A stretch of 64,000 bases of DNA, from positions 64,001 through 128,000 of the forward strand of contig JBMNFL010000001.1 in assembly GCA_050949315.1 (NCBI GenBank), in the 5' to 3' direction. This DNA comes from Bacilli bacterium. Its GTDB lineage: Bacteria > Bacillota_I > Bacilli_A > RFN20 > UBA1709. The translations under genes and the position numbers were made by a program. Every line of letters begins with the position of its first letter. The first letter of the stretch is position 1. A model generated the notes under the pieces. The model was given only the letters and a program-made list of their open reading frames with translations. It did not search any database and was not told the origin of the DNA. Positions 1-12,738 of this stretch are shown piece by piece.

Positions 1-144
1 GTTTCAATATCTACTGGTATATAATTTCTTTCTTGTGTTAAAATATCCATGGGCATCTCCTTCTATATTGGTTCAACTTCATTATAGATAAGATGCCTAC
101 TTTTTTTTATTAATTTTGTCTCACATCATTTGATATTAAACACA
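1..144 (-). mobile_element. End of a second, divergent IS481-like element (partial, runs off window); includes 5' end of a putative transposase gene (ATG at 50, MDILTQERNYIPVDIET...)
   Basis: 28-bp end 117-144 reads TGTGT...ACA on the - strand, like the end of the adjacent IS. The -10 box lies 58 bp from the end in both elements. Same RBS-covering hairpin (51-98). Only 16 codons are visible. Confidence 0.65.
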
Positions 145-166
145 GTTGACTAGTTTTTACTATAAT
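145..166 (+). repeat. 22-bp direct repeat (target-site duplication), copy 1: GTTGACTAGTTTTTACTATAAT
   Basis: Identical to 1215-1236; abuts the TGT end of the IS at 167. Confidence 0.9.
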
Positions 167-1214
167 TGTCTTAATTGTCAAGACATATGTTACACTTTGA
201 GAAATATTCTGTTACAACTTGATTAGGGCTTTTAAAGTTAAGACATGTTTTAGCTGTATTGTTATATCGCTGCTCGTGTTTAGCTACTTGTTGTCTAAGT
301 TCTTTCTCGCTAATAAAGATTTTTCGCCCATACAGAATTTTTCCATCTTCTCTATGACTTCTTTCAACTTTTCCGTTCTGCCACGGTGAATAAGGTCTCG
401 TCCTTTTTAATTTTATTCCTAACTTATTGGCCGTCAGTTCAAATATACTCGTTTTATTAGTACGATCATCATCATTTACAAATTCGGCTCCGTTGTCCAC
501 TTGTATCATATTAATTGGAAATCCCATGGCTTTTTCTAGGCTTTTAAGATATTTTGTCGTTTCGTACGTACTCTTCTCTTTGACTATACAGAGAATTCTT
601 TTGCGACTAAACTCATCAATTCCAGTGATTTGATAATATCTGTCTCCATATGTTGGGAATTTTATGCATTCAAGGGGAACATACTTTATATCTATCTGCA
701 CCTTGTCTCCAGGATATTTTCCGTCCAATCTTTCGTATTTTGTATAACTCTTACGATGAATTTCCGGGGTTTTATAACCCTTTTTTCGTATTTGTCGACA
801 CATACTCCCAAAACTTCTTTTATACCCTTTTTGACAACATCGAACATATACTTCTGCCAATCCATAAACACCATTTCTTCTTAACATTCGCTTAATTAGC
901 GACAGCTCATCATCTGTATGAGCATTTGGACTAGTTAGGGGTCTTCTTGAGCGCAAGGCAAGACTTCTGATGTCCCCATCATATTTGTTTAATTGCCTAT
1001 AAACAAACTGACGGTTGGTGTGATAACGCCTTGCGGCTCTTGTTACACCATTTTTGAGCGCATATTCACACATTTTCTGGCGAAAGCGCATTTCTTCGGT
1101 TATACTAGTCATGAGAGAGCTCCTTTCGGTACCTTTTTTTGGATAAACTTATTGTACCAGAGTCTCTCTCTTTTTTTATTTATTTCTGTAACATATGTTT
1201 TATCACACTACACA
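167..1214 (-). mobile_element. IS481-family insertion sequence, 1048 bp, TGT...ACA ends, imperfect 28-bp terminal IRs (167-194 / 1187-1214)
   Basis: IR core ACATATGTTACA / TGTAACATATGT; single DDE transposase; flanked by 22-bp direct repeats. Confidence 0.88.
171..1112 (-). CDS. IS481-family DDE transposase (HTH + rve integrase core)
   Basis: QIDIKYV, QVDNGAEF, TRPYSPWQNGKVERSHR motifs. Confidence 0.93.
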   Translation of the reverse strand: MTSITEEMRFRQKMCEYALKNGVTRAARRYHTNRQFVYRQLNKYDGDIRSLALRSRRPLTSPNAHTDDELSLIKRMLRRNGVYGLAEVYVRCCQKGYKRSFGSMCRQIRKKGYKTPEIHRKSYTKYERLDGKYPGDKVQIDIKYVPLECIKFPTYGDRYYQITGIDEFSRKRILCIVKEKSTYETTKYLKSLEKAMGFPINMIQVDNGAEFVNDDDRTNKTSIFELTANKLGIKLKRTRPYSPWQNGKVERSHREDGKILYGRKIFISEKELRQQVAKHEQRYNNTAKTCLNFKSPNQVVTEYFSKCNICLDN

Positions 1215-1236
1215 GTTGACTAGTTTTTACTATAAT
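1215..1236 (+). repeat. 22-bp direct repeat, copy 2
   Basis: Identical to 145-166; abuts the ACA end of the IS. Confidence 0.9.
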
Positions 1237-1245
1237 TGTTAAAAT
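1216..1245 (+). promoter_or_regulatory. sigmaA-type promoter of spx
   Basis: TTGACT (1216-1221), 18-bp spacer, TG-t-TAAAAT (-10 at 1240-1245); RBS AAGGTGA before TTG start. Confidence 0.7.
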
Positions 1246-1265
1246 AACAACAGAAGGTGATTTAA

Positions 1266-1691
1266 TTGATTAGAATCTATACGTCTCCAAGTTGTGCTTC
1301 CTGTCGTAAGGCCATCGCCTTTTTAAAGGAGCACAAAATCCCTTTCAAGGAAAAGAATATTTTGACGGCGCTTTTGTCGGAGGCGGAAATTAGAGACATT
1401 TTGGTAAAAAGCGAAAACGGGACTGATGATATTATCTCTAAGCGCTCCAAAATTATTAAGGAGGGTAATGTTGATATTGATAGTATGAAAGTCAGTGAAT
1501 TAATCGCTTTTATTCGTGAAAATCCAACGGTTTTAAAGCGACCTATCATCGTTAATGATCGCTTGATGCAAGTTGGTTATAATAAAGAAGAGATTAGGAC
1601 CTTTATCCCGCGAGAACTACGTCGTCTCATGTATGAGAGTAATTGTGGTCCGGATTGTCCTAATTGTAAGGATGATTGTTATAAAAAATAA
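1266..1691 (+). CDS. spx: Spx/MgsR family RNAP-binding regulator with Cys-rich C-terminal tail
   Basis: YTSPSCASCRKA CXXC motif, LKRPII, GYNKEEIRTFIPR. Confidence 0.9.
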   Translation: MIRIYTSPSCASCRKAIAFLKEHKIPFKEKNILTALLSEAEIRDILVKSENGTDDIISKRSKIIKEGNVDIDSMKVSELIAFIRENPTVLKRPIIVNDRLMQVGYNKEEIRTFIPRELRRLMYESNCGPDCPNCKDDCYKK

Positions 1692-1716
1692 AACATGGTT
1701 TCAAGCCATGTTTTTT
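1690..1716. terminator. Bidirectional intrinsic terminator between spx and nadK
   Basis: AAAACATGG-tttcaag-CCATGTTTTTT. Confidence 0.75.
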
Positions 1717-2503
1717 AATCAAGAAATTTTTCTTTGATTTTCTTCAAGAAACTATTTTCTCGGAAGTGAATTAAGTTCACACATTTTGGACTAAGCTGGA
1801 CTTCAATTTTCCCGGCTTTCGGTTTTTTTATGGAGTAGTAATCAATGCCGATGTAGGCGGATTCAAAATATTGAGATTCTAGGCTTATTTTGTGTGTTTC
1901 ATCTAAAATTAAGGGATTTAATAAAGTGCGAATATTCCGAGTATTGATTGGGGCGATTTCGCTAATAGTTATAGCCTTAATTGTGCGCTCAACTAAGGGA
2001 CCGCCTAAGGAACGGTTGTAAGCAGTTGAACCTAAAGGACTGCAAATACAAAGACCATTACCAAAGGTTTTTTCAAAGTCTTGATTATCAATTGCAACAT
2101 TAATTTCTAAAGTGCGAAAACGGTGTTCTACACGCAGTTCATTAACACAGAAATGTTGCTCCTTTTTATCATCATAAAAATAATTTACTTCCAGTAAATG
2201 ACATTTTTCTTCTTGGTAGTCTTTAGTTAAAAGATCATCAATTAAAAGATTGACATCTTTAGAATTATAGTCGGTTAAAAAACCAAGTGTCCCCGTGTTC
2301 AAAGCGACAAATTTAGTTTTATCGAGTTGGTTCAAGTAACGATGAATGGCCCGCAAAACCTTGCCGTCGCCGCCAATAACAATAACAAATTCAGGATTAA
2401 CATCATCATTAATCCAAGCATTAGCTTCCAATTCTTCCCTAATTCTTTGGGCAGCATTAATGGAGAAATTATCGGTGCGACTATAGATGGTAAACTTTTT
2501 CAT
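1715..2503 (-). CDS. nadK: NAD kinase
   Basis: IGGDG, GTLGFL, NE, GSTAYNRSLGGP motifs. Confidence 0.92.
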   Translation of the reverse strand: MKKFTIYSRTDNFSINAAQRIREELEANAWINDDVNPEFVIVIGGDGKVLRAIHRYLNQLDKTKFVALNTGTLGFLTDYNSKDVNLLIDDLLTKDYQEEKCHLLEVNYFYDDKKEQHFCVNELRVEHRFRTLEINVAIDNQDFEKTFGNGLCICSPLGSTAYNRSLGGPLVERTIKAITISEIAPINTRNIRTLLNPLILDETHKISLESQYFESAYIGIDYYSIKKPKAGKIEVQLSPKCVNLIHFRENSFLKKIKEKFLD

Positions 2504-2568
2504 CCATTTAACCTCTTTCTAATTCTCTTTTATTATTGTATCATAAACTTGAAAAAGGAGGTATAATA

Positions 2569-3111
2569 ATGAGCAAATTTATCGAAATTGAGGCCAAGTA
2601 TTTATTAAACAAGGAAGATTTTATTAAATTGCACCAATATTTAAAATTAGACGATCAAAAAAGTTTTGTTCAAAATAATGAATATCTTGATACGTTGGAC
2701 CAGCATTTACGTGAAAAGGCTTGGATGTTACGCATAAGAACTATTGGGACCCAAAAAGAATTGACCTTAAAAAAGCCACTTAAAGAGGGTATGGAAGAAA
2801 CAAATATTCCAATTAGTGCCGAAGAATATCAAAAGATTATCAAAACGGGTCGAGTTCCCCTTACTGGCTTAGAAAAACTAAAATTTGTGGTCATTGGGCG
2901 CCTACTTACTAAACGAATTTCTTGCCCTTATGAAGGGGGCGAACTTTTTCTAGACGAAAATTATTATCGTAGTCTTTACGATTACGAAGTTGAATATGAA
3001 GTAAAGGATTCTCTTGAGCGTGCTAAAAAAACGCTGGAAGAACTTTTTGATAAGTTGGAGATTAGTTCTTATAGACCTTCACGTTCAAAAAATTATCGTT
3101 GCTGTTATTAA
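2569..3111 (+). CDS. CYTH-domain protein (YjbK-like)
   Basis: EIEAK, LRIR, DYEVEYE; ATG at 2569 after AGGAGG. Confidence 0.85.
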   Translation: MSKFIEIEAKYLLNKEDFIKLHQYLKLDDQKSFVQNNEYLDTLDQHLREKAWMLRIRTIGTQKELTLKKPLKEGMEETNIPISAEEYQKIIKTGRVPLTGLEKLKFVVIGRLLTKRISCPYEGGELFLDENYYRSLYDYEVEYEVKDSLERAKKTLEELFDKLEISSYRPSRSKNYRCCY

Positions 3112-3140
3112 AAAATGTTAGACAAGAGCTAACATTTTTC
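3110..3140. terminator. Bidirectional terminator between the CYTH gene and maf
   Basis: AAAAATGTTAG...CTAACATTTTT. Confidence 0.7.
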
Positions 3141-3142
3141 TT

Positions 3143-3694
3143 TTATAGGTGTTTCAATTCTTGAATAATTTTAGCGATTGGTAGTCCCATTACGGTATAA
3201 AAATCGCCGTTAATGGCTTTTATATATTTAGCACCCAGTCCTTGAATAGCATAAGCACCTGCTTTATCTAAAGGCTCTTTGGTGGCGACATAATCGGCAA
3301 TTTCTTTTGCACTCATGGGATAGAATTCCACCTCAGTGATTGAAGTAAAAGAGCGGATTTTAGTGCCTTTTTGTAGGCAAACACCGGTGGAAACCAAATG
3401 CTTTTCACCGGCTAGTTTGCTTAACATTTCTTGAGCCTCCAACGAATTTTTGGGTTTGCCAAGAATTTCATTATCAATAATGACAATAGTATCGGCAGCA
3501 AGAACGATATCATCAGGGTGTTTTTTGGAAACATTCTGCGCTTTTGCTTGGGCTAATTTTTCGGGCAAGTAGATTTTTTCGCCTGTATATTTTAAATTTT
3601 CTTCAGTAAAATCTGAAGGTATGACTTGGAATTTTAAGCCCACTAGTTTGAGGATTTCCTTCCGCCTAGGGGAAGCGCTAGCTAAGATTAACAT
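3143..3694 (-). CDS. maf: Maf family nucleoside triphosphate pyrophosphatase
   Basis: LILASASPRR, ADT, DKAGAYAIQG. Confidence 0.95.
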   Translation of the reverse strand: MLILASASPRRKEILKLVGLKFQVIPSDFTEENLKYTGEKIYLPEKLAQAKAQNVSKKHPDDIVLAADTIVIIDNEILGKPKNSLEAQEMLSKLAGEKHLVSTGVCLQKGTKIRSFTSITEVEFYPMSAKEIADYVATKEPLDKAGAYAIQGLGAKYIKAINGDFYTVMGLPIAKIIQELKHL

Positions 3695-3699
3695 CTCAA

Positions 3700-5466
3700 T
3701 TATTTCTCTGATAATTTACTTTCCACTTTAGCCATGGTTTTTCTTCTTTTGCGCACATCTTTAATGACATGATTCAACACTTCATCTTCTTCAGTTAATT
3801 TATTCATTATGACGGGAACAATCATGGGATTACGATTGGTTTTTTCATAGATAAAAGAGGCCAAAGAGTTGCGAATGGTATTCTTAATATTGGCAAATGT
3901 CACGCGGCCAGCAAAGAGTTCTTGTAATGAATCTTCAACATGTTGACTGGCGCTTTTTACTAATTCACCTGTTTCATCAATTTTAATAAAGCCCCGAGAG
4001 ACAATCTTTGGGGGAATAATCAATTGATTGGTGCGTGAGTCCATAGTAATTAAGCAGATTAGCACACCATCGCTTGATAAGATTTTGCGATCGCGGATAA
4101 TGGCGGTAGAAAGCCCCGAGCTATCTTTGCCGTCAACATAGATATCTTCAGCAGCTACTCTTTGACCTAGTCGCACTTCGCCCCTGCGAATGATAATAGT
4201 GTCGCCATTTGCTAAAACAAAGATATTTTCTTTAGGTATTCCTAAGGATTGAGCGATTTCGGCATGAATTTTTAACATGCGGTATTCACCGTGGATAGGC
4301 ATAAAGTATTTAGGCTCTAATAGGGCCAGCATACACTTTAATTCTTCTTGGTTAGCGTGACCTGAGGCATGAATGTTATTCAAAATTGAATTGGTTAGAA
4401 CATTAGCTCCCTGTCGGTAAAGTTTATTGACAACACGATTAATACTTAAAGCATTACCAGGGATGGGACTAGAAGAAAAAACCACGGTGTCGCCAGGCAT
4501 AATTTTCAAATATTTATGAGTACCATTGGAAATACGCGACAAGGCGGCTAAGGGTTCACCTTGACTACCTGTACAAAGGATTAATAGCTGCTCTGGTCGA
4601 TACAAATTAACATTATTCATGGCAATAATTTGGGAATCTGGACAGCGAATGTAACCATATTTTCTACCAATAGAGACGGTTTTATCCATTGAGCGCCCAA
4701 CGATGGCGATTTTTCGCTTGAAACGAACAGCGGCCTCAACAATTTGTTGAATACGATGGATATTAGAGGCGAAAGTGGCCACTAGTAAACGACCACGGGT
4801 ATTTTTAAAAACATCATTAATCTGTTCGACAACTTTACTTTCACTTAAGGATAAACCCGGAACTTCAGCGTTAGTTGAGTCACTTAAAAGTAGAGTAACA
4901 CCAGCTTTACCAATAGCGGCAATCTTATGAAGATCCATGTGTTGGCCGATAGGAGTTAAATCAATTTTAAAATCACCAGTATGGACAATTCGACCATTAG
5001 GTGTATTAATAGCTAGTCCTAAAGAATCGGGAATTGAGTGCGTGACACTAAAGAAATCAATACGCATATCATCAATGGTTAGAGAAGAATCTCCATCAAT
5101 TTCCTCAATGTTTACTTTTTGACGAATATGAAATTCTTCTAATTTATTTTTGATTAAAGCAGCCGCTAAACGCGGAGCATAGATAATGGGAATATTAACT
5201 TTTTGAAGCAGAAAAGGAATCGAACCGATGTGATCCTCGTGTCCATGCGTAATAAGTAAAGCCTTGATTTTATATTGATTAGAAACCAAATAACTAAAAT
5301 CAGGGATTACATAGTCAATACCGGGCAAATTTTCTTCTGGGAACATTACGCCCGAGTCGATTATTATGATAGTTGTATCATCTTCAACACAGTAAAGATT
5401 TTTACCTACTTCACCAAGACCGCCCAAAGCAAACACTGCAGTTTCACTTCGGCTAAAATTGTGCAT
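3700..5466 (-). CDS. rnj: Ribonuclease J
   Basis: GGLGEVGKN, THGHEDHIG, HASGH motifs. Confidence 0.96.
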   Translation of the reverse strand: MHNFSRSETAVFALGGLGEVGKNLYCVEDDTTIIIIDSGVMFPEENLPGIDYVIPDFSYLVSNQYKIKALLITHGHEDHIGSIPFLLQKVNIPIIYAPRLAAALIKNKLEEFHIRQKVNIEEIDGDSSLTIDDMRIDFFSVTHSIPDSLGLAINTPNGRIVHTGDFKIDLTPIGQHMDLHKIAAIGKAGVTLLLSDSTNAEVPGLSLSESKVVEQINDVFKNTRGRLLVATFASNIHRIQQIVEAAVRFKRKIAIVGRSMDKTVSIGRKYGYIRCPDSQIIAMNNVNLYRPEQLLILCTGSQGEPLAALSRISNGTHKYLKIMPGDTVVFSSSPIPGNALSINRVVNKLYRQGANVLTNSILNNIHASGHANQEELKCMLALLEPKYFMPIHGEYRMLKIHAEIAQSLGIPKENIFVLANGDTIIIRRGEVRLGQRVAAEDIYVDGKDSSGLSTAIIRDRKILSSDGVLICLITMDSRTNQLIIPPKIVSRGFIKIDETGELVKSASQHVEDSLQELFAGRVTFANIKNTIRNSLASFIYEKTNRNPMIVPVIMNKLTEEDEVLNHVIKDVRKRRKTMAKVESKLSEK

Positions 5467-7013: not shown

Positions 7014-8348
7014 TTATTTCAAAACTTCCCAATAACCATATTGATTATTTCCTATCCTTTGCAAATAGCCCTTTTTAATTAAAGCATTAGTATATCTTTG
7101 TACAGTTTTTTCGGTTTTTCCTATTGCTTTAGCTAAATCCATTTTAATAATTTTGGAATTCTCTTTAATTAAATTTAATATCGTTTTTTCGTTTTCGTTT
7201 AAGTCATCAGCATAGACATTTGGTTGGACATTTGGGTGGACATTTTTTCTGTGAAAAGTAAAATAAAAACCATAAGCGGTATTTTCAAAAGACCATTTTA
7301 TATCTGCTTCTAAACAAAGCTTATTCATTCTTTTATATCCTGTACCGGACTTTTCAACATCTTTACATCTAAATAATGTTTCTAATATCAAAGGATTTCT
7401 TTTTATTGATGAAATATCTTTTTCTATAAAATCATGTGGAGTAAGCTCATCAGGAAAAGATCCTGGATTAAAGATGGTTATTTTATTTGGATGAATATTT
7501 ATTTCTATTTCTGGACTGTTTTTGTAGTTAGCATGTGCAAAGGCATTAATTACCATTTCTCTTAATGCAGCTATAGGAATTTCTGGTATTTCATCTCTTT
7601 GTGTTCCCTTGATATCTATTCTCCAATTAATACGATTTCTTAAATAAACCATGGCCTCATTAATCAAATTATAAATATTATCTTTAAATAATTTTAAATC
7701 ATTAAATGTTATTTTCTCATTTGTAGCAAAACTAGCCACTTTTAAACTAACAGGAGCATTTTTCCCAAATAAATAAAAGGCGGCATTAGTTAACATCCCA
7801 TTTGATAAAAGACCAAGAATAGTAAGAAGGCTTTTTTTATTATATTCTTTCATTTGAAGTCTTCCACAATTTATGGATTCTTTATAAAAAAGCCCGAGAG
7901 TTTTATCATCTATTTCATCTAAGTCATGAGATGAAGGTTCTTTTTCCCATTGCAAAGAATAATTGCTTTCTTTAATAAGCCTAATCAATTCATCACGGCT
8001 CATTTTTCTATTTTGAGTACCAACACGAATTAAAAATTTACCATAGGCAGAATAAGGTTGTTGTGTTCCTGAAAAAGACACCTTAATAATACTTTTCCCA
8101 TCAATAACAAGACTCTCTATTGTTGGAGTAATTTTTGGTTCTATATCTCTTGTAATTGATTCAGCCAAATCTTTTAAAGTAGAGTCACTAACTATTTGCC
8201 CCCGAATATTACCATTATCGTATACTCCGAAGTATAATACGCCACAACCATGTTTGTTAATAATAGCTGCAATGGATTCCAAAGCTTCATGTCTTTCGCT
8301 TGTTGATTCTTTAAATTCTAATATTTCAGACTCATGACCCAAGTTCAT
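7014..8348 (-). CDS. AlbA_2 (Schlafen-like) + HATPase_c_4-like + C-terminal winged-HTH protein
   Basis: ESEILEFKES...GVLYFGVYDNG; ALREMVINAFAH...NPG...GTG; C-terminal HTH. Start reassigned to ATG 8348 (SD AGAGGTG). More AT-rich than neighbours. Confidence 0.85.
   Translation of the reverse strand: MNLGHESEILEFKESTSERHEALESIAAIINKHGCGVLYFGVYDNGNIRGQIVSDSTLKDLAESITRDIEPKITPTIESLVIDGKSIIKVSFSGTQQPYSAYGKFLIRVGTQNRKMSRDELIRLIKESNYSLQWEKEPSSHDLDEIDDKTLGLFYKESINCGRLQMKEYNKKSLLTILGLLSNGMLTNAAFYLFGKNAPVSLKVASFATNEKITFNDLKLFKDNIYNLINEAMVYLRNRINWRIDIKGTQRDEIPEIPIAALREMVINAFAHANYKNSPEIEINIHPNKITIFNPGSFPDELTPHDFIEKDISSIKRNPLILETLFRCKDVEKSGTGYKRMNKLCLEADIKWSFENTAYGFYFTFHRKNVHPNVQPNVYADDLNENEKTILNLIKENSKIIKMDLAKAIGKTEKTVQRYTNALIKKGYLQRIGNNQYGYWEVLK
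7215..7246 (-). repeat. Intragenic 12-bp tandem repeat (about 2.6 units of AAATGTCCACCC) encoding NVHP-NVQP-NV linker
   Basis: - strand reads AAATGTCCACCC AAATGTCCAACC AAATGTC. Confidence 0.9.
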
Positions 8349-8370
8349 ACAAACACCTCTCTTTTTACTC

Positions 8371-8399
8371 ATCATAGCAAATGTCCACCCAAATGTCCA
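8371..8399 (-). promoter_or_regulatory. Promoter of the AlbA_2 gene, with -35 formed by the repeat
   Basis: TGGACA (8399-8394), 17-bp spacer, TG-c-TATGAT (-10 at 8376-8371). Confidence 0.65.
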
Positions 8400-8417
8400 C
8401 CCAAATGTCCACCCAAA
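8378..8417 (+). repeat. Perfect 3x 12-bp tandem repeat (CAAATGTCCACC)3+CAAA, inverted relative to 7215-7246
   Basis: Read directly from the sequence. Confidence 0.95.
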
Positions 8418-8596
8418 ACTTTATTGTTTTAAGAAAGACTATTAAAACAGAGAAAACCAATTGTTCAGATTAAAATAAAAAAAGAATCACGTAATAATAG
8501 ATAATAACTTTTAATGTAATGAGTATTCAAACTTGTCCTGGTTGACTTTTATGCTTTTTATGGACATAATAAGATTATTCTAAGGGGGAGAAGAGA

Positions 8597-9160
8597 ATGA
8601 AGCGAGGACTATTGATTATCCTGAGTGGTCCAAGTGGTGTTGGCAAGGGGACAATTCGCGCCCGCCTTTTCGCTGATCCTAAGCTTAATCTTGTTTATTC
8701 AGTCTCGATGACAACACGCCCTATTAGACCTGGAGAGAAAGAAGGAATTGATTATTACTTTGTTTCCAAAAATCGTTTTTTAGATGCGATTGAAAATGGT
8801 GAGCTTTTAGAACACGCGGTCTTTGTTGGTAATTATTATGGAACCCCTAAAAAATACGTGGATGATTTACGCGATAAGGGTTTAAATGTGGTCTTAGAAA
8901 TTGAAACTGAAGGTGCTAAACAGGTTATCGATAAATGCCCAGATGCCATCTCTATTTTCATTATCCCGCCATCTTTTGATGAACTAGTCAGGCGCATTCG
9001 CAGTCGGCGTACCGAAGCAGAGGAGATTATTCAAAAACGTTTAAATAAGGCCAGTTATGAAATGCAGTTGCTAGATATTTATTCTCATGTGGTTGTCAAT
9101 GATAATGTTGATAAAGCTGCTGAGAAGATTAAGGAAATTCTTAGGGGCTATTTAAAGTAA
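8597..9160 (+). CDS. gmk: Guanylate kinase
   Basis: SGPSGVGKGT, TTRPIRPGE, NYYGT. Confidence 0.96.
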   Translation: MKRGLLIILSGPSGVGKGTIRARLFADPKLNLVYSVSMTTRPIRPGEKEGIDYYFVSKNRFLDAIENGELLEHAVFVGNYYGTPKKYVDDLRDKGLNVVLEIETEGAKQVIDKCPDAISIFIIPPSFDELVRRIRSRRTEAEEIIQKRLNKASYEMQLLDIYSHVVVNDNVDKAAEKIKEILRGYLK

Positions 9161-9166
9161 AAGAAT

Positions 9167-9188
9167 AAAGCGGTTATCCGCTTTTTTT
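9167..9188 (+). terminator. Intrinsic terminator after gmk
   Basis: AAAGCGG-ttat-CCGCTTTTTTT. Confidence 0.75.
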
Positions 9189-9262
9189 AATAGTTTCTGC
9201 CTTCATTTTTCTATGTTTTTGTTAGAACTATATGTTAAAATCTAAAAAAGGAGTTGATTTAG

Positions 9263-11455
9263 ATGCGCATTGCCAAAGTTTATATTGAACATCCAATAGC
9301 TAGTCTAGATTTTCCTTTGGATTATTTTGTAAGTCCCCAAACCGAAATTACAGCAGGTGTTCGAGTGGAAGTGGAACTGCAAAATCGCTTTGTTGTCGGT
9401 TATGTGGAAGAGATTGTCAATACAGAACTCACCATTGAAGAATATCAAGAAAAGAGTGGTTTTACTATTAAACCGATAATAAAGGTTTTAGATCAAGAAG
9501 CCCTGTTAAATCCGGAGTTGCAGGCTCTGGCGCATTTTCTAGCTTCGTCAACTTTATCTCCAGTCATTTCCGCTTATCAGACGATTTTGCCGCCAGCTTT
9601 ACGTCCAACATCTGGGCCTAAAGTGGGGATCAAGAAATTAAAGACAATAAAAGTTTTAGATGACGATACTGAGGGTTTAACAGTGGGGCAGGCGAACTTA
9701 TTAAAAAGAATAAAAAGTGATGAAATCTATCTTAAAGATGTTTCTAGCAAGAGTATGCTCAAAAAATTAGAAGCCTTAGAAAAAATTGTTATCTATGATA
9801 AAGAAATATATCGTTCACCTTATGATTTTTCTGATATTAAGAAAAAGAAGGGGCCTATCTTAAACGCTGAACAGGAAAAAGCTATTAATGAAGTTTTGAA
9901 TAATGATGCCAAGGTTTATTTACTTGAAGGTGTGACCGGAAGTGGCAAAACCGAAGTTTATATTAACCTAGCCATTGCGACCTTAAAAGAAGGGAAAAAC
10001 GTCTTAATTTTGGTTCCCGAGATTTCTCTAACCCCCGCTATGGTCAAACGCTTTGCTGAACGCATAGAGGAGAAAATCGCTGTTCTTCATGGTTCTCTAA
10101 GCATGGGGGAACGCTATGATGAATATCGAAGAATTGCTTCGGGAGAAGCGAAAATTGTGATAGGGGCCCGTAGTGCGGTCTTTGCTCCGCTAGCCAAAAT
10201 TGGTTTAATCGTTGTCGATGAAGAACATAGTGAATCTTATAAACAGGACAATGTGCCTAGTTACCATGTTTTAGATGTTGTTATGGAACGACAGAGAAAT
10301 TCCAATTGCAAAGTTGTTTTAGGTAGTGCTACCCCCAGTCTGGAATCTAAAGCCCGGGCTGTTAAAGGTCTTTATCAACAGCTTTATTTAACTAAAAGGA
10401 TTAATAATCGTCCTTTACCCAAGGTGGAACTTGTGGATATGCTAAAAGAGGCCAAAAGTGGGAATATTGGTTTCTTGTCAAAGTCCTTAAAATCGGCTCT
10501 CCAGCAATGTCTTGACCGCAATGAACAAGCCATTATTTTATTGAATCGGCGAGGTTATGCTATAAGTATGTTTTGTCGAACTTGTGGCCATGTTTTTAAA
10601 TGTCCAAATTGTGGTGTGGCTTTGCATTATCACCATAGCGATAAAGTCTTAAAATGTCATTATTGTGGCTATGAAATAGGGCGACCAAGTACTTGTCCAA
10701 AATGCAAAGGGACTCACTTACAAACAGCAGGAATAGGTACCCAAAAAGTCGAAGAAATTTTAAATAAGAGATTTAATAATGCGCGTGTGATTAGAATGGA
10801 TATTGACAGCGTTAAAAATCGTGGTGGTCACCAAAAAATTTTGGAGGCTTTTGAAAGTGGAAAATATAATATTTTATTAGGAACGCAGATGATTGCTAAG
10901 GGTCTAGATTTTCCAAATGTAACACTAGTTGGGGTCTTGAATGCTGACACTGCTTTATACTGTGGAGATTTTCGCTCCAACGAGCGCACTTTCCAACTAT
11001 TGACCCAAGTGGTGGGCCGTAGTGGAAGAGGAGCGATGATTGGGCGGGCGATTATTCAAACTTACAACATCGATGCCTATGCTATTAATTTGGCAGCTAA
11101 GCAGGATTACAGTGCCTTTTTCAAACGCGAAATGCAATACCGTCATGAGTGTATGTATCCGCCATATAGTTTTCTAGTGAAAATAATGTTTATGGGAACT
11201 AATAAGGATCGTGTTTTAGCCTTCGCAGAAAGCATTAGGCGCCACATTTTAAACGAAAGTCAGGGCATGTGGTTAGAAATATTAGGCCCAGTTGAGCCCT
11301 ACATACCCAAGAGATTTAATAAATATCGTTACCGAATTATGTTAAAATATAAAGATAAGGTGGCTATGCAAGAATTATTGCAGAATTTACGTGAACTTAC
11401 CCGAAATGAGCCGATTGATGTTCATTTTGATACAAGCCCCTATAATGAGATTTAA
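9263..11455 (+). CDS. priA: Primosomal protein N' (replication restart helicase)
   Basis: GVTGSGKTE, DEEH, two Zn-finger CxxC pairs, GLDFPNVTLV. Confidence 0.96.
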   Translation: MRIAKVYIEHPIASLDFPLDYFVSPQTEITAGVRVEVELQNRFVVGYVEEIVNTELTIEEYQEKSGFTIKPIIKVLDQEALLNPELQALAHFLASSTLSPVISAYQTILPPALRPTSGPKVGIKKLKTIKVLDDDTEGLTVGQANLLKRIKSDEIYLKDVSSKSMLKKLEALEKIVIYDKEIYRSPYDFSDIKKKKGPILNAEQEKAINEVLNNDAKVYLLEGVTGSGKTEVYINLAIATLKEGKNVLILVPEISLTPAMVKRFAERIEEKIAVLHGSLSMGERYDEYRRIASGEAKIVIGARSAVFAPLAKIGLIVVDEEHSESYKQDNVPSYHVLDVVMERQRNSNCKVVLGSATPSLESKARAVKGLYQQLYLTKRINNRPLPKVELVDMLKEAKSGNIGFLSKSLKSALQQCLDRNEQAIILLNRRGYAISMFCRTCGHVFKCPNCGVALHYHHSDKVLKCHYCGYEIGRPSTCPKCKGTHLQTAGIGTQKVEEILNKRFNNARVIRMDIDSVKNRGGHQKILEAFESGKYNILLGTQMIAKGLDFPNVTLVGVLNADTALYCGDFRSNERTFQLLTQVVGRSGRGAMIGRAIIQTYNIDAYAINLAAKQDYSAFFKREMQYRHECMYPPYSFLVKIMFMGTNKDRVLAFAESIRRHILNESQGMWLEILGPVEPYIPKRFNKYRYRIMLKYKDKVAMQELLQNLRELTRNEPIDVHFDTSPYNEI

Positions 11456-11463
11456 GGAGAACA

Positions 11464-12738
11464 ATGAAAGTTAGAGAATTAGCCTTTGAAATTATAAGCA
11501 CCTTCTATAAAAAGAAAACTTTTATCAATATTGCTTTATCCCAAGCGATTAGGAGGCATAATTTAACGGCAGTTGACCGCGCTTTTTTAACGCGCTTAGT
11601 TTATGGAACTTTACAAAATCATCGTTTACTAGATTATGAAATAAAAAAGGTCACTACTAATAAAAAAATCCGTCCGGATATGCGCAGTTTACTAAAGTGT
11701 GCGCTTTATCAAATGCGTTTTATGGATAAAGTTCCAGCTTATGCCATAATCAATGAGAGTGTTGAGATTGCAAAAAAGAATTTTGGTTTACAAGCCACCT
11801 CCTTTTGTAATGCAGTCCTTAGACAATTACAAAAAGAAAAATTCGAACCAAAAAGAGAAGAATTTATTGATGAATTAGCCTATTTATCTTTGGTTTATTC
11901 CCATCCTGAGTGGCTGCTTAGAATGGTCGCCAAACATCACGGACAAGATTCGGCTATCTGTTGGTTAAAAAACAATCATAAAGAGGCACCGCTTACTGTT
12001 CGTGTTAATACTTTAAAGGCCAAAAAGGAAGAGTTATTAAAACTTGGCTTTTTTAGAGAAAATTTAGCCAGCTCTGAAGCATTAGACTATATAGATAAGG
12101 GGAATCCTGCTGATTTACCAGAGTTCTTAGCTGGTAAATTCGTAATTCAAGATCTTTCTAGTCAACTGGTGGCGAGTTTGTTGAATCCTAAAGTTGGCGA
12201 TACGGTTTTAGATATGTGTGCCGCCCCGGGTTCTAAGACTTATCATTTAGCCGCCTTGATGAAAAATCAAGGAAAAATAGTGGCGCTTGATATCCATGAA
12301 CATCGTTTAAAGTTACTGGTGGGTAATTTACCAAGATTGGGTATCTCTATTGTGGAAACAAAACAATGTGATGCGACCAAACTCGATCAATTCTTCCCAG
12401 CCGAAAGTTTCGATGCCGTTTTACTAGATGCTCCTTGTTCGGGTCTAGGGGTTATTCGCCGCAAGCCTGATATTTTAATTAATTTGAAACAAGAGGCTTT
12501 GGACTCTTTAATTGATACTCAACGTCTTTTGATTGATCAAGCGGTTAAAGTAGTTAAAAAAGGCGGGACTTTAGTTTATTCCACCTGCACAATTAATAAA
12601 AAAGAAAACGAAGGACAGATAGAATATCTTTTAAAGCGCTATCCAAATTTTAAGTTGGAGAGTCAAACGCTTATTTTAGATAATGAAAACTTAAACGATG
12701 ATTTCTTTATGGCAAAATTGAGAAGGAGTGATGGTTAA
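11464..12738 (+). CDS. rsmB: 16S rRNA m5C967 methyltransferase
   Basis: NusB-like N-terminus, DMCAAPGSKT, DAPCSGLG, YSTCT. Confidence 0.94.
   Translation: MKVRELAFEIISTFYKKKTFINIALSQAIRRHNLTAVDRAFLTRLVYGTLQNHRLLDYEIKKVTTNKKIRPDMRSLLKCALYQMRFMDKVPAYAIINESVEIAKKNFGLQATSFCNAVLRQLQKEKFEPKREEFIDELAYLSLVYSHPEWLLRMVAKHHGQDSAICWLKNNHKEAPLTVRVNTLKAKKEELLKLGFFRENLASSEALDYIDKGNPADLPEFLAGKFVIQDLSSQLVASLLNPKVGDTVLDMCAAPGSKTYHLAALMKNQGKIVALDIHEHRLKLLVGNLPRLGISIVETKQCDATKLDQFFPAESFDAVLLDAPCSGLGVIRRKPDILINLKQEALDSLIDTQRLLIDQAVKVVKKGGTLVYSTCTINKKENEGQIEYLLKRYPNFKLESQTLILDNENLNDDFFMAKLRRSDG

Follow-up and report, generated by a model that had tools for sequence, protein, structure and literature searches.

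How two different transposable elements come to lie head to tail between identical copies of a short repeat, directly in front of a regulatory gene, is the question raised by the first 1245 bases of a 64-kb stretch of a Bacilli bacterium genome (contig JBMNFL010000001.1), here called the window. Read on the plus strand, this region holds the beginning of one insertion sequence (IS), element A, followed by a complete second one, element B, and by the spx promoter region. An earlier reading of the bare sequence (the original prediction) had seen here a stack of IS481-like elements that re-use one sigmaA promoter as their target. It is probable that A and B are members of an IS481-like clade that homes to promoters, and that they were stacked by repeated insertion at a single promoter, which would lie just to the left of the window.

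The repeat that separates the elements also defines their borders. Exactly two copies of the 22-mer GTTGACTAGTTTTTACTATAAT are present in the window (145-166 and 1215-1236), even when up to three mismatches are allowed; 0.01 matches are expected by chance, and two or more matches arose in none of 100 shuffles. The full exact repeat is 30 nt long (140-169 and 1210-1239), with mismatches directly outside on both sides. It is composed of a 26-bp target-site duplication (TSD), positions 143-168 being identical to 1213-1238, and four further nucleotides, namely the ...ACA with which both left tips, that of A and that of B, end and one T that matches by chance. Borders between TSD and IS follow from alignment in register with relatives that have unambiguous TSDs, and this register gives family termini of 5'-TGTAATG... 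on the left and ...TAAGA-3' on the right (left end TGTAATGTGATAAGACATATGTTACA, right end TGTAACATATGTnTTGACAAnTAAGA). The repeat noticed in the original prediction is therefore real and present in two exact copies, but it was measured too short. Borders had been placed at a TGT at 167 and an ACA at 1214 with a 22-bp duplication between elements, 2 nt off on each side, because TGT...ACA had been assumed at both tips whereas the right tip is actually ...AGA. No further copy of element B or of the 22-mer is found in the 64 kb. The features of the region are as follows:

1..142, minus strand: left end of element A, in register with the left end of B, with the TGT...ACA tip over 26 nt
143..168: first TSD copy, CAGTTGACTAGTTTTTACTATAATTG, between the left end of A and the right end of B, identical to 1213-1238
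169..1212, minus strand: element B, a complete IS481-like IS of 1044 bp whose ends fit the family consensus
171..1112, minus strand: transposase of B, 313 aa, with Pfam domains rve and rve_3
1213..1238: second TSD copy, abutting the left end of B and extending into the spx promoter, identical to 143-168
1216..1245, plus strand: promoter-like site for spx, 10/12 matches in a consensus scan
1266..1691, plus strand: spx, a Spx/ArsC-family regulator of 141 aa with a TTG start (NCBIfam PRK01655)

Element B is intact. Its single open reading frame (ORF) of 942 nt is uninterrupted, its right and left inverted repeats span 169-194 and 1187-1212, and over 26 nt, aligned without any shift, its termini differ from the family consensus at two positions on the left and one on the right. 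At the DNA level B is 72-75% identical to the seven relatives compared. The transposase matches Pfam rve (3.3e-11) and rve_3 (7.6e-10), both above the cut-offs, and the best of the five NCBIfam models matched is IS481 (NF033577; 8.4e-46, 156.8 bits, against a cut-off of 224). B is thus an IS481-like element, as had been proposed, though one that scores below the family threshold: both its protein and the A-type protein P0181 are IS481-like and stand outside the curated IS481 equivalog. A match to NF033594 (ISNCY_2), a model that may not cover IS1202, reaches 21.7 bits (9.5e-05), where the cut-off is 250. The Pfam and NCBIfam matches of B are limited to rve, IS481, IS21 and IS3 types, and none is Mutator-like. 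The catalytic DDE triad (D141, D206, E250) is invariant across 31 aligned family sequences, and a profile built from this alignment retrieves IS21-family IstA and retroviral integrases from the PDB. At the left tip, B, A and most relatives begin with TGT. Read inward, the right tip is TCT (...AGA) in B and in the relatives close to it, and TGT (...ACA) in two distant ones from a phage collection, L032 and L033 (42.5% and 38% identity). The subterminal inverted repeats are conserved, with AAGACATATGTTACA at both ends. Homologues of B number 2780 at E ≤ 0.001, many of them on contigs of about 1 kb.

Element A, to judge from the 142 bases in view, is the start of a different but related IS. Its terminal inverted repeat (117-142; minus-strand reading TGTTTAATATCAAATGATGTGAGACA) is followed by an A-run placed as in B, a 5' leader, a ribosome-binding site and an ORF start. 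The transposase begins with the ATG at 50..48 or that at 56..54, so that its first 16-18 codons are visible before the gene leaves the window. Positions 100-142 align without gaps with the left end of B, and the 70-nt family D1 is 77% identical, with agreement at about 24 of 40 positions outside the exact repeat. All 18 residues of the N-terminal translation MPMDILTQERNYIPVDIE match the start of P0400, a 343-aa transposase that occurs on 42 contigs and is 38% identical to that of B over 287 residues. P0181, a relative of P0400, is likewise IS481-like (179 bits, below the NCBIfam cut-off), and a search with it returns 1484 proteins at E ≤ 1e-30, many on contigs of about 1.1 kb. The P0400 match and the modest identity to B bear out the proposal that A represents the end of another, related IS, and the 18/18 match together with the inverted repeat rules out A as a host gene. 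A tandem-dimer or circle-junction intermediate is also ruled out, since A and B differ and the spacer between them is a TSD. In a plasmid collection, tblastn with the transposase of B and with P0181 gave no match.

What such elements do to their targets can be seen in the relatives of B. One scan of genome contigs with the B transposase yielded 31 loci of 48-81% identity, all in genomes other than that of the window; the hosts include Clostridia, Bacilli, Tissierellia, Mucispirillum, Schaalia, a Cloacimonadota bin and a Gastranaerophilales bin. Clean TSDs of 25-26 bp are present in 8 of the 21 relatives with both flanks: 26 bp in L002, L007, L011, L018 (with one mismatch) and L022, and 25 bp in L003, L013 and L016. 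Two more (L028 and L029) have a 25-mer only if an outer left end is used, around a compound unit. Of the two distant phage-collection relatives, L033 has a 24-nt repeat with two mismatches, and L032 shows no repeat. A single contig of [Eubacterium] infirmum carries three copies of 1047 bp that are 100% identical and are flanked by unrelated repeats of 26, 25 and 26 bp; different repeats beside identical copies mean that the repeats are true target duplications and not element DNA. The duplication is therefore unusually long, as had been proposed, and a stagger of 22 bp gives way to one of 25-26 bp.

The same loci reveal where the insertions fall. A promoter consensus, TTGACA-N16-18-TATAAT, was scored on the transposase strand at offsets 0-59 past the right end of each IS. 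The best score lies at an offset of 28-31 in 18 of 27 right flanks, where about 1.8 would be expected (binomial P = 1.8e-15), and the same test on left flanks finds 1 of 21 in either reading direction. Scores of at least 9/12 at offsets 28-31 occur in 15 of 27 loci, compared with 244 of 18394 anchors placed at random within these loci (1.3%; P = 1e-21). Among the sites, TTGACA-17-TAAAAT, TTGACA-17-TATGAT and TTGACA-17-TATCAT are typical. The first ORF past the right end is co-directional in 16 of the 24 loci with enough flank and begins 60-160 nt from the IS tip in 13 of 24. The resulting geometry is simple: the right end of the IS lies 28-31 nt upstream of the -35 hexamer, the 25-26-bp TSD stops 3-4 nt before it, and the promoter core is untouched. 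Judged by these consensus matches, insertion in this clade is directed to promoters and has one orientation, and what is duplicated is the 26 bp upstream, not the core. The collection of copies that the original prediction had proposed as a check, by duplication length and by alignment on -35 boxes, thus bears out targeting of sigma70-type promoters. It does not bear out the view that the duplicated segment runs from the -35 to the -10.

Four insertions (L004, L012, L017 and L027) keep the exact distance from promoters with a perfect -10 and only three or four of six matches in the -35, a hint that recognition exceeds the TTGACA word. A bolder proposal builds on this, and it is put forward tentatively, as a possibility on the doubtful side. 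An IS481-like, rve-type clade of gut and urogenital anaerobes, spread over at least five phyla, may have evolved promoter homing independently, sensing a bound or open sigma70-type promoter, perhaps through the RNA polymerase holoenzyme and not the -35 alone. With the right end set 28-31 bp upstream and a stagger of two and a half helical turns (26 bp), promoters would then serve as reusable pads for ordered stacks of ISs.

Applied to the window, repeated insertion at one promoter would proceed as follows. The transposase would cut its target with a 25-26-bp stagger and thereby duplicate 25-26 bp. Insertion would occur in a single orientation upstream of a sigma70-type promoter, the right end (3' of the transposase gene) coming to lie 28-31 nt before the -35. 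Because this would re-create the 26-mer beside a whole promoter, a later arrival could reuse the exact site. The newcomer would land on the promoter side of the resident, and a head-to-tail stack with identical TSD copies between its members would grow; elements of one orientation and identical TSD copies are what would be expected if the site stays available after each insertion. The order would be target promoter and third 26-mer (both outside the window), A, 26-mer, B, 26-mer and spx. The target promoter would lie past the right end of A and read leftwards, and A would be the later arrival. Promoters for spx and for the target gene would stand back to back and diverge, hence the presence of the spx -35 within the 26-mer. 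The promoter itself could be found by direct reading of the DNA or by contact with bound RNA polymerase holoenzyme. Much of the original interpretation survives in this account, including the long stagger, promoter targeting and use of exactly the same site by two different members, but its geometry does not.

That geometry deserves separate consideration, for the promoter first thought to be the target was that of spx. The product is a Spx protein (PRK01655; 2.1e-49, 166.9 bits, cut-off 123), with the model spanning residues 1-121 of 141; beyond the model is a tail of 20 residues, CGPDCPNCKDDC, that is rich in cysteine. By pattern match only, its promoter-like site reads TTGACT, an 18-nt spacer and TAAAAT with a preceding TG. 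The -35 begins 3 nt from the left end of B, the segment from the -35 hexamer through the TG is inside the TSD, and the -10 hexamer is outside it. Had this promoter itself been targeted, the cuts would fall 3 nt before the -35 and just before the -10, the core would be duplicated and B would be the later arrival. The site is a good one at 10/12, its 3 nt from the near cut to the -35 recall the 3-4 nt of the relatives, and weak sites adjoin the left end at offsets 0-4 in a few of these (scores of 9 in L012, 9 in L024 and 8 in L007). Yet 18 of the 27 relatives have their promoter on the right-end side, where it lies outside the TSD and is directed away from the IS, whereas on the left-end side it is found at the family distance in 1 of 21, with low scores near the tip; moreover, the shared 26-mer of a second stack, at locus L006, lies upstream of a promoter and not across it. 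Targeting of the spx promoter is accordingly held to be unlikely. A general second mode of targeting, with the promoter at the left end, was also considered and rejected, since the left-end sides of relatives show weak matches only, at offsets 0-5 (5-9/12). With its promoter on the left-end side and inside the TSD, spx misfits the family geometry, and for this reason it is probably a bystander of a divergent target promoter to the left of the window.

The second stack, on an independent contig of 2 Mb, provides a view of the promoter that the window lacks. In L006, AAAAAAAATCTGCACAGCAAATCACTAT comes after the right end of copy 1, and next come a T and the left end of copy 2. This 26-mer recurs in inverted orientation beside a right-end remnant, with six A instead of eight, and is followed there by TTCTA and then by TTTACA-17-TAAAAT with a TG. 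The arrangement suggests the same kind of stack with its promoter visible, and is supportive rather than clean. Within the locus (8174-12110), an IS3-like element of two ORFs (8314-9908, minus strand; named by eye) interrupts one copy, the second copy is truncated after about 150 nt, and the inverted right-end remnant adjoins the promoter of a 519-aa gene. A 25-nt sequence, TTGTGAAAAGnTCTnCGGATTTAnA, stands at both outer junctions.

Both stacks could also be read as homing to the terminal repeat of a resident relative, much as certain ISs insert beside their own ends, the shared 26-mer being simply whatever adjoined that end. The window and L006 both join a right end to a related left end across 26-29 nt, and in L006 the T before the left end creates a TTGTAA at offset 28. 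Offsets 26-32 past the right end of B are poor, however (TTTAAT-16-CAAAAT, 7/12), only 2 of about 30 copies abut another copy while 18 of 27 abut a host promoter, and the L006 26-mer also adjoins a host promoter. Such homing to IS ends is quite improbable. A related idea, that the right end of B was aimed at the transposase promoter of A, was rejected because the best site past the right end of B is at offset 58 and not at 28-31.

Could the stack be a product of assembly? An exact repeat of 30 nt can mislead assemblies made with small k, and two separate insertions might have been joined through it. Even if the join were false, two different ISs would still have to share one 26-mer and with it one target site. 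The longest contig listed for the protein cluster of B has 1,011,443 bases, so the assembly is highly contiguous, and a comparable stack stands in the independent contig of L006. An artefact is thus very hard to credit. The resemblance to CRISPR expansion noted in the original prediction is one of layout alone: TSDs stand in the place of the 'repeats', and whole ISs in that of the 'spacers'. There are two repeat copies in 64 kb, the 'spacer' measures 1044 bp, and in the relatives the repeat differs from one insertion site to the next.

Several points weigh against stacking at an off-window promoter. The promoter it requires would lie left of base 1, outside the window, and the sole good promoter-like site in view, that of spx, is on the left-end side of B and within the TSD, where the relatives differ. 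The best promoter score falls elsewhere than offset 28-31 in 9 of 27 right flanks, and the promoter calls throughout are consensus matches only. No TSD is found in 11 of the 21 relatives with both flanks, several of them metagenome bins or decayed copies; many of the TSD-less relatives are such bins, in which joins across repeats are unreliable. The fetched loci contain no A-type copy from which the TSD length and target preference of A itself could be read. Finally, L006 is rearranged (IS3-like insertion, truncated copy 2 and inverted remnant), and the poly-A tract differs by 2 nt between its 26-mers.

The ends of the elements show further features. In the right inverted repeat, both in the window (169-194) and at the right ends of L001-L024, an outward-facing TTGACA lies 8-13 nt from the tip. 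In ISs that transpose by copy-out-paste-in, an outward-facing terminal hexamer of this kind forms a junction promoter. This TTGACA is about 42-43 bp, or some four helical turns, from the targeted -35 hexamer. The left tips, for their part, form promoter-like combinations with the TATAAT of the 26-mer. At 137-166 the tip of A gives TAAACA-18-TATAAT (10/12), which reads into B, antisense to its transposase, and at 1209-1236 the tip of B gives TACACA-16-TATAAT (10/12), which reads towards spx.

Some relatives are larger than a simple IS. In L028 (Schaalia turicensis; 7093-11127) a 25-bp TSD encloses a compound unit that starts with a solo left end and about 100 nt of IS, continues with two passenger ORFs (of 180 aa and 588 aa) and closes with a whole IS whose transposase is broken, an arrangement from which the family would appear able to carry cargo. 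This insertion is apparently within a gene and not at a strong promoter. In L029 (the Cloacimonadota bin; 48-3792) a degenerate 25-mer (4 edits) surrounds another compound arrangement, which runs from a decayed IS copy through an ORF of 400 aa and a small helix-turn-helix-like ORF to a second IS copy with a frameshift. A Peptoniphilus/Kallipyga/Schaalia subgroup (L012, L021, L022, L024 and L028) has about 175 conserved nucleotides between the transposase stop and the right inverted repeat. For this segment a long hairpin is predicted, with 47 pairs, three of which show compensatory changes among the five sequences, and Rfam has no match to it. Rfam searches of window positions 1-1800 and of L022 9800-11300 gave no match at E ≤ 0.01.

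Elsewhere in the window, a minus-strand gene at 7014..8375 encodes a 453-aa protein with Schlafen AlbA_2, HATPase_c_4 and winged-helix domains. At 8381-8416, a short way upstream of the start and within the region 7014-8424, AAATGTCCACCC is repeated three times in tandem, and an inverted copy of these units (7212-7245; 31 nt, 97% complementary) is found within the 3' end of the gene. Together the two might act as paired operators through which the gene regulates itself, or as an inversion site. The RNase J encoded in the window has its best named relatives in 'Bacilli bacterium' entries, at about 59-68% identity, and the host is accordingly taken to be an uncultured member of the Bacilli.

Insertion that spares the promoter would explain why these elements are tolerated and so abundant, the 2780 homologues included, and why assemblies break at them. 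It would amount to a natural, safe-harbour style of insertion. Recurring head-to-tail stacks of ISs are also prone to misreading by annotation pipelines.

Other families offer examples of long TSDs and, separately, of promoter targeting, and the combination of the two in an IS481-like clade is apparently new. IS1630 of Mycoplasma fermentans, a member of the IS30 family, makes duplications of 19-26 bp. A literature search found no paper on 25-26-bp TSDs with promoter targeting in an IS481-like clade, and nothing relevant on either property alone in an IS481-like element, its scope leaving aside ISfinder and the supplements of the IS1202 preprint, which might list relatives. One match to '25-bp direct' concerned prophage att sites and is not relevant.

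The closest kin by protein is the IS481 family itself. In the available excerpts of one account, ISfinder entries for IS481 have TSDs of 2-15 bp, mostly 6 bp, and the TSDs of IS481, IS1202 and IS481EU fall into discrete classes near 5, 15 and 25 bp (PMC10045372). The clade described here shares with IS481 a single rve-type DDE transposase, a length of about 1 kb, a TGT left end and conserved subterminal inverted repeats, but it scores below the family cut-off, its right end is TCT and not TGT, and its TSD of 25-26 bp is beyond the range of 2-15. IS481 itself prefers NCTAGN sites. The present clade would place prokaryotic IS481-like elements on this 5/15/25-bp ladder of duplication lengths. The same excerpts describe the IS481EU elements of parabasalids, with TGT...ACA ends and TSD classes that include 24-25 bp (PMC10045372). 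Their hosts are eukaryotes, the 24-25-bp class is rare (1 of 11 full-length IS481EU-7_TV copies), and no promoter targeting is described in those excerpts (PMC10045372).

The IS1202 subgroup provides a second comparison. According to the part of the preprint available, it is found in Firmicutes and Tenericutes, has a transposase distantly related to those of IS481 and IS3, and makes TSDs of 27-28 bp, some copies being without direct repeats (bioRxiv 10.1101/2022.12.17.520857). A very long TSD and copies lacking repeats are also seen here. The IS1202 transposase is larger. The 25-26 bp found here overlap the 24-29 bp that ISfinder gives for IS1202 and not the 27-28 bp of the preprint; B matches an ISNCY-named model weakly, and no promoter targeting of IS1202 is reported in the portion of the preprint at hand. 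The same portion describes an ISAba32 subgroup that targets Xer sites with TSDs of 5-6 bp, with two members stacked after a single site (bioRxiv 10.1101/2022.12.17.520857). Landing one TSD-length from a landmark, fixed orientation and stacking of two different members are all shared with the elements described here, although the ISAba32 landmark in these pages is an Xer recombination site (XerCD) and not a promoter, and the TSD is 5-6 bp.

The nearest parallel in behaviour is that of TnGBS, ISLre2 and ISKra4. As described in the excerpts available, these elements insert in one orientation 15-17 bp upstream of sigmaA promoters and have their right repeat on the promoter side, and their transposases are Mutator-like (PMC3942029). 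Oriented promoter targeting is common to both, as seen here in 18 of 27 right flanks. Unlike them, the present clade has an rve and not a Mutator-like transposase, stands off by 28-31 rather than 15-17 bp and makes a far longer TSD, and the likeness looks like convergence, not membership. Insertion in a set orientation and at a constant distance from promoters has so far been tied to that one unrelated transposase superfamily (TnGBS/ISLre2). If the account given here is true, the IS481 lineage provides a second, convergent case and with it a test of how a DDE enzyme finds promoters.

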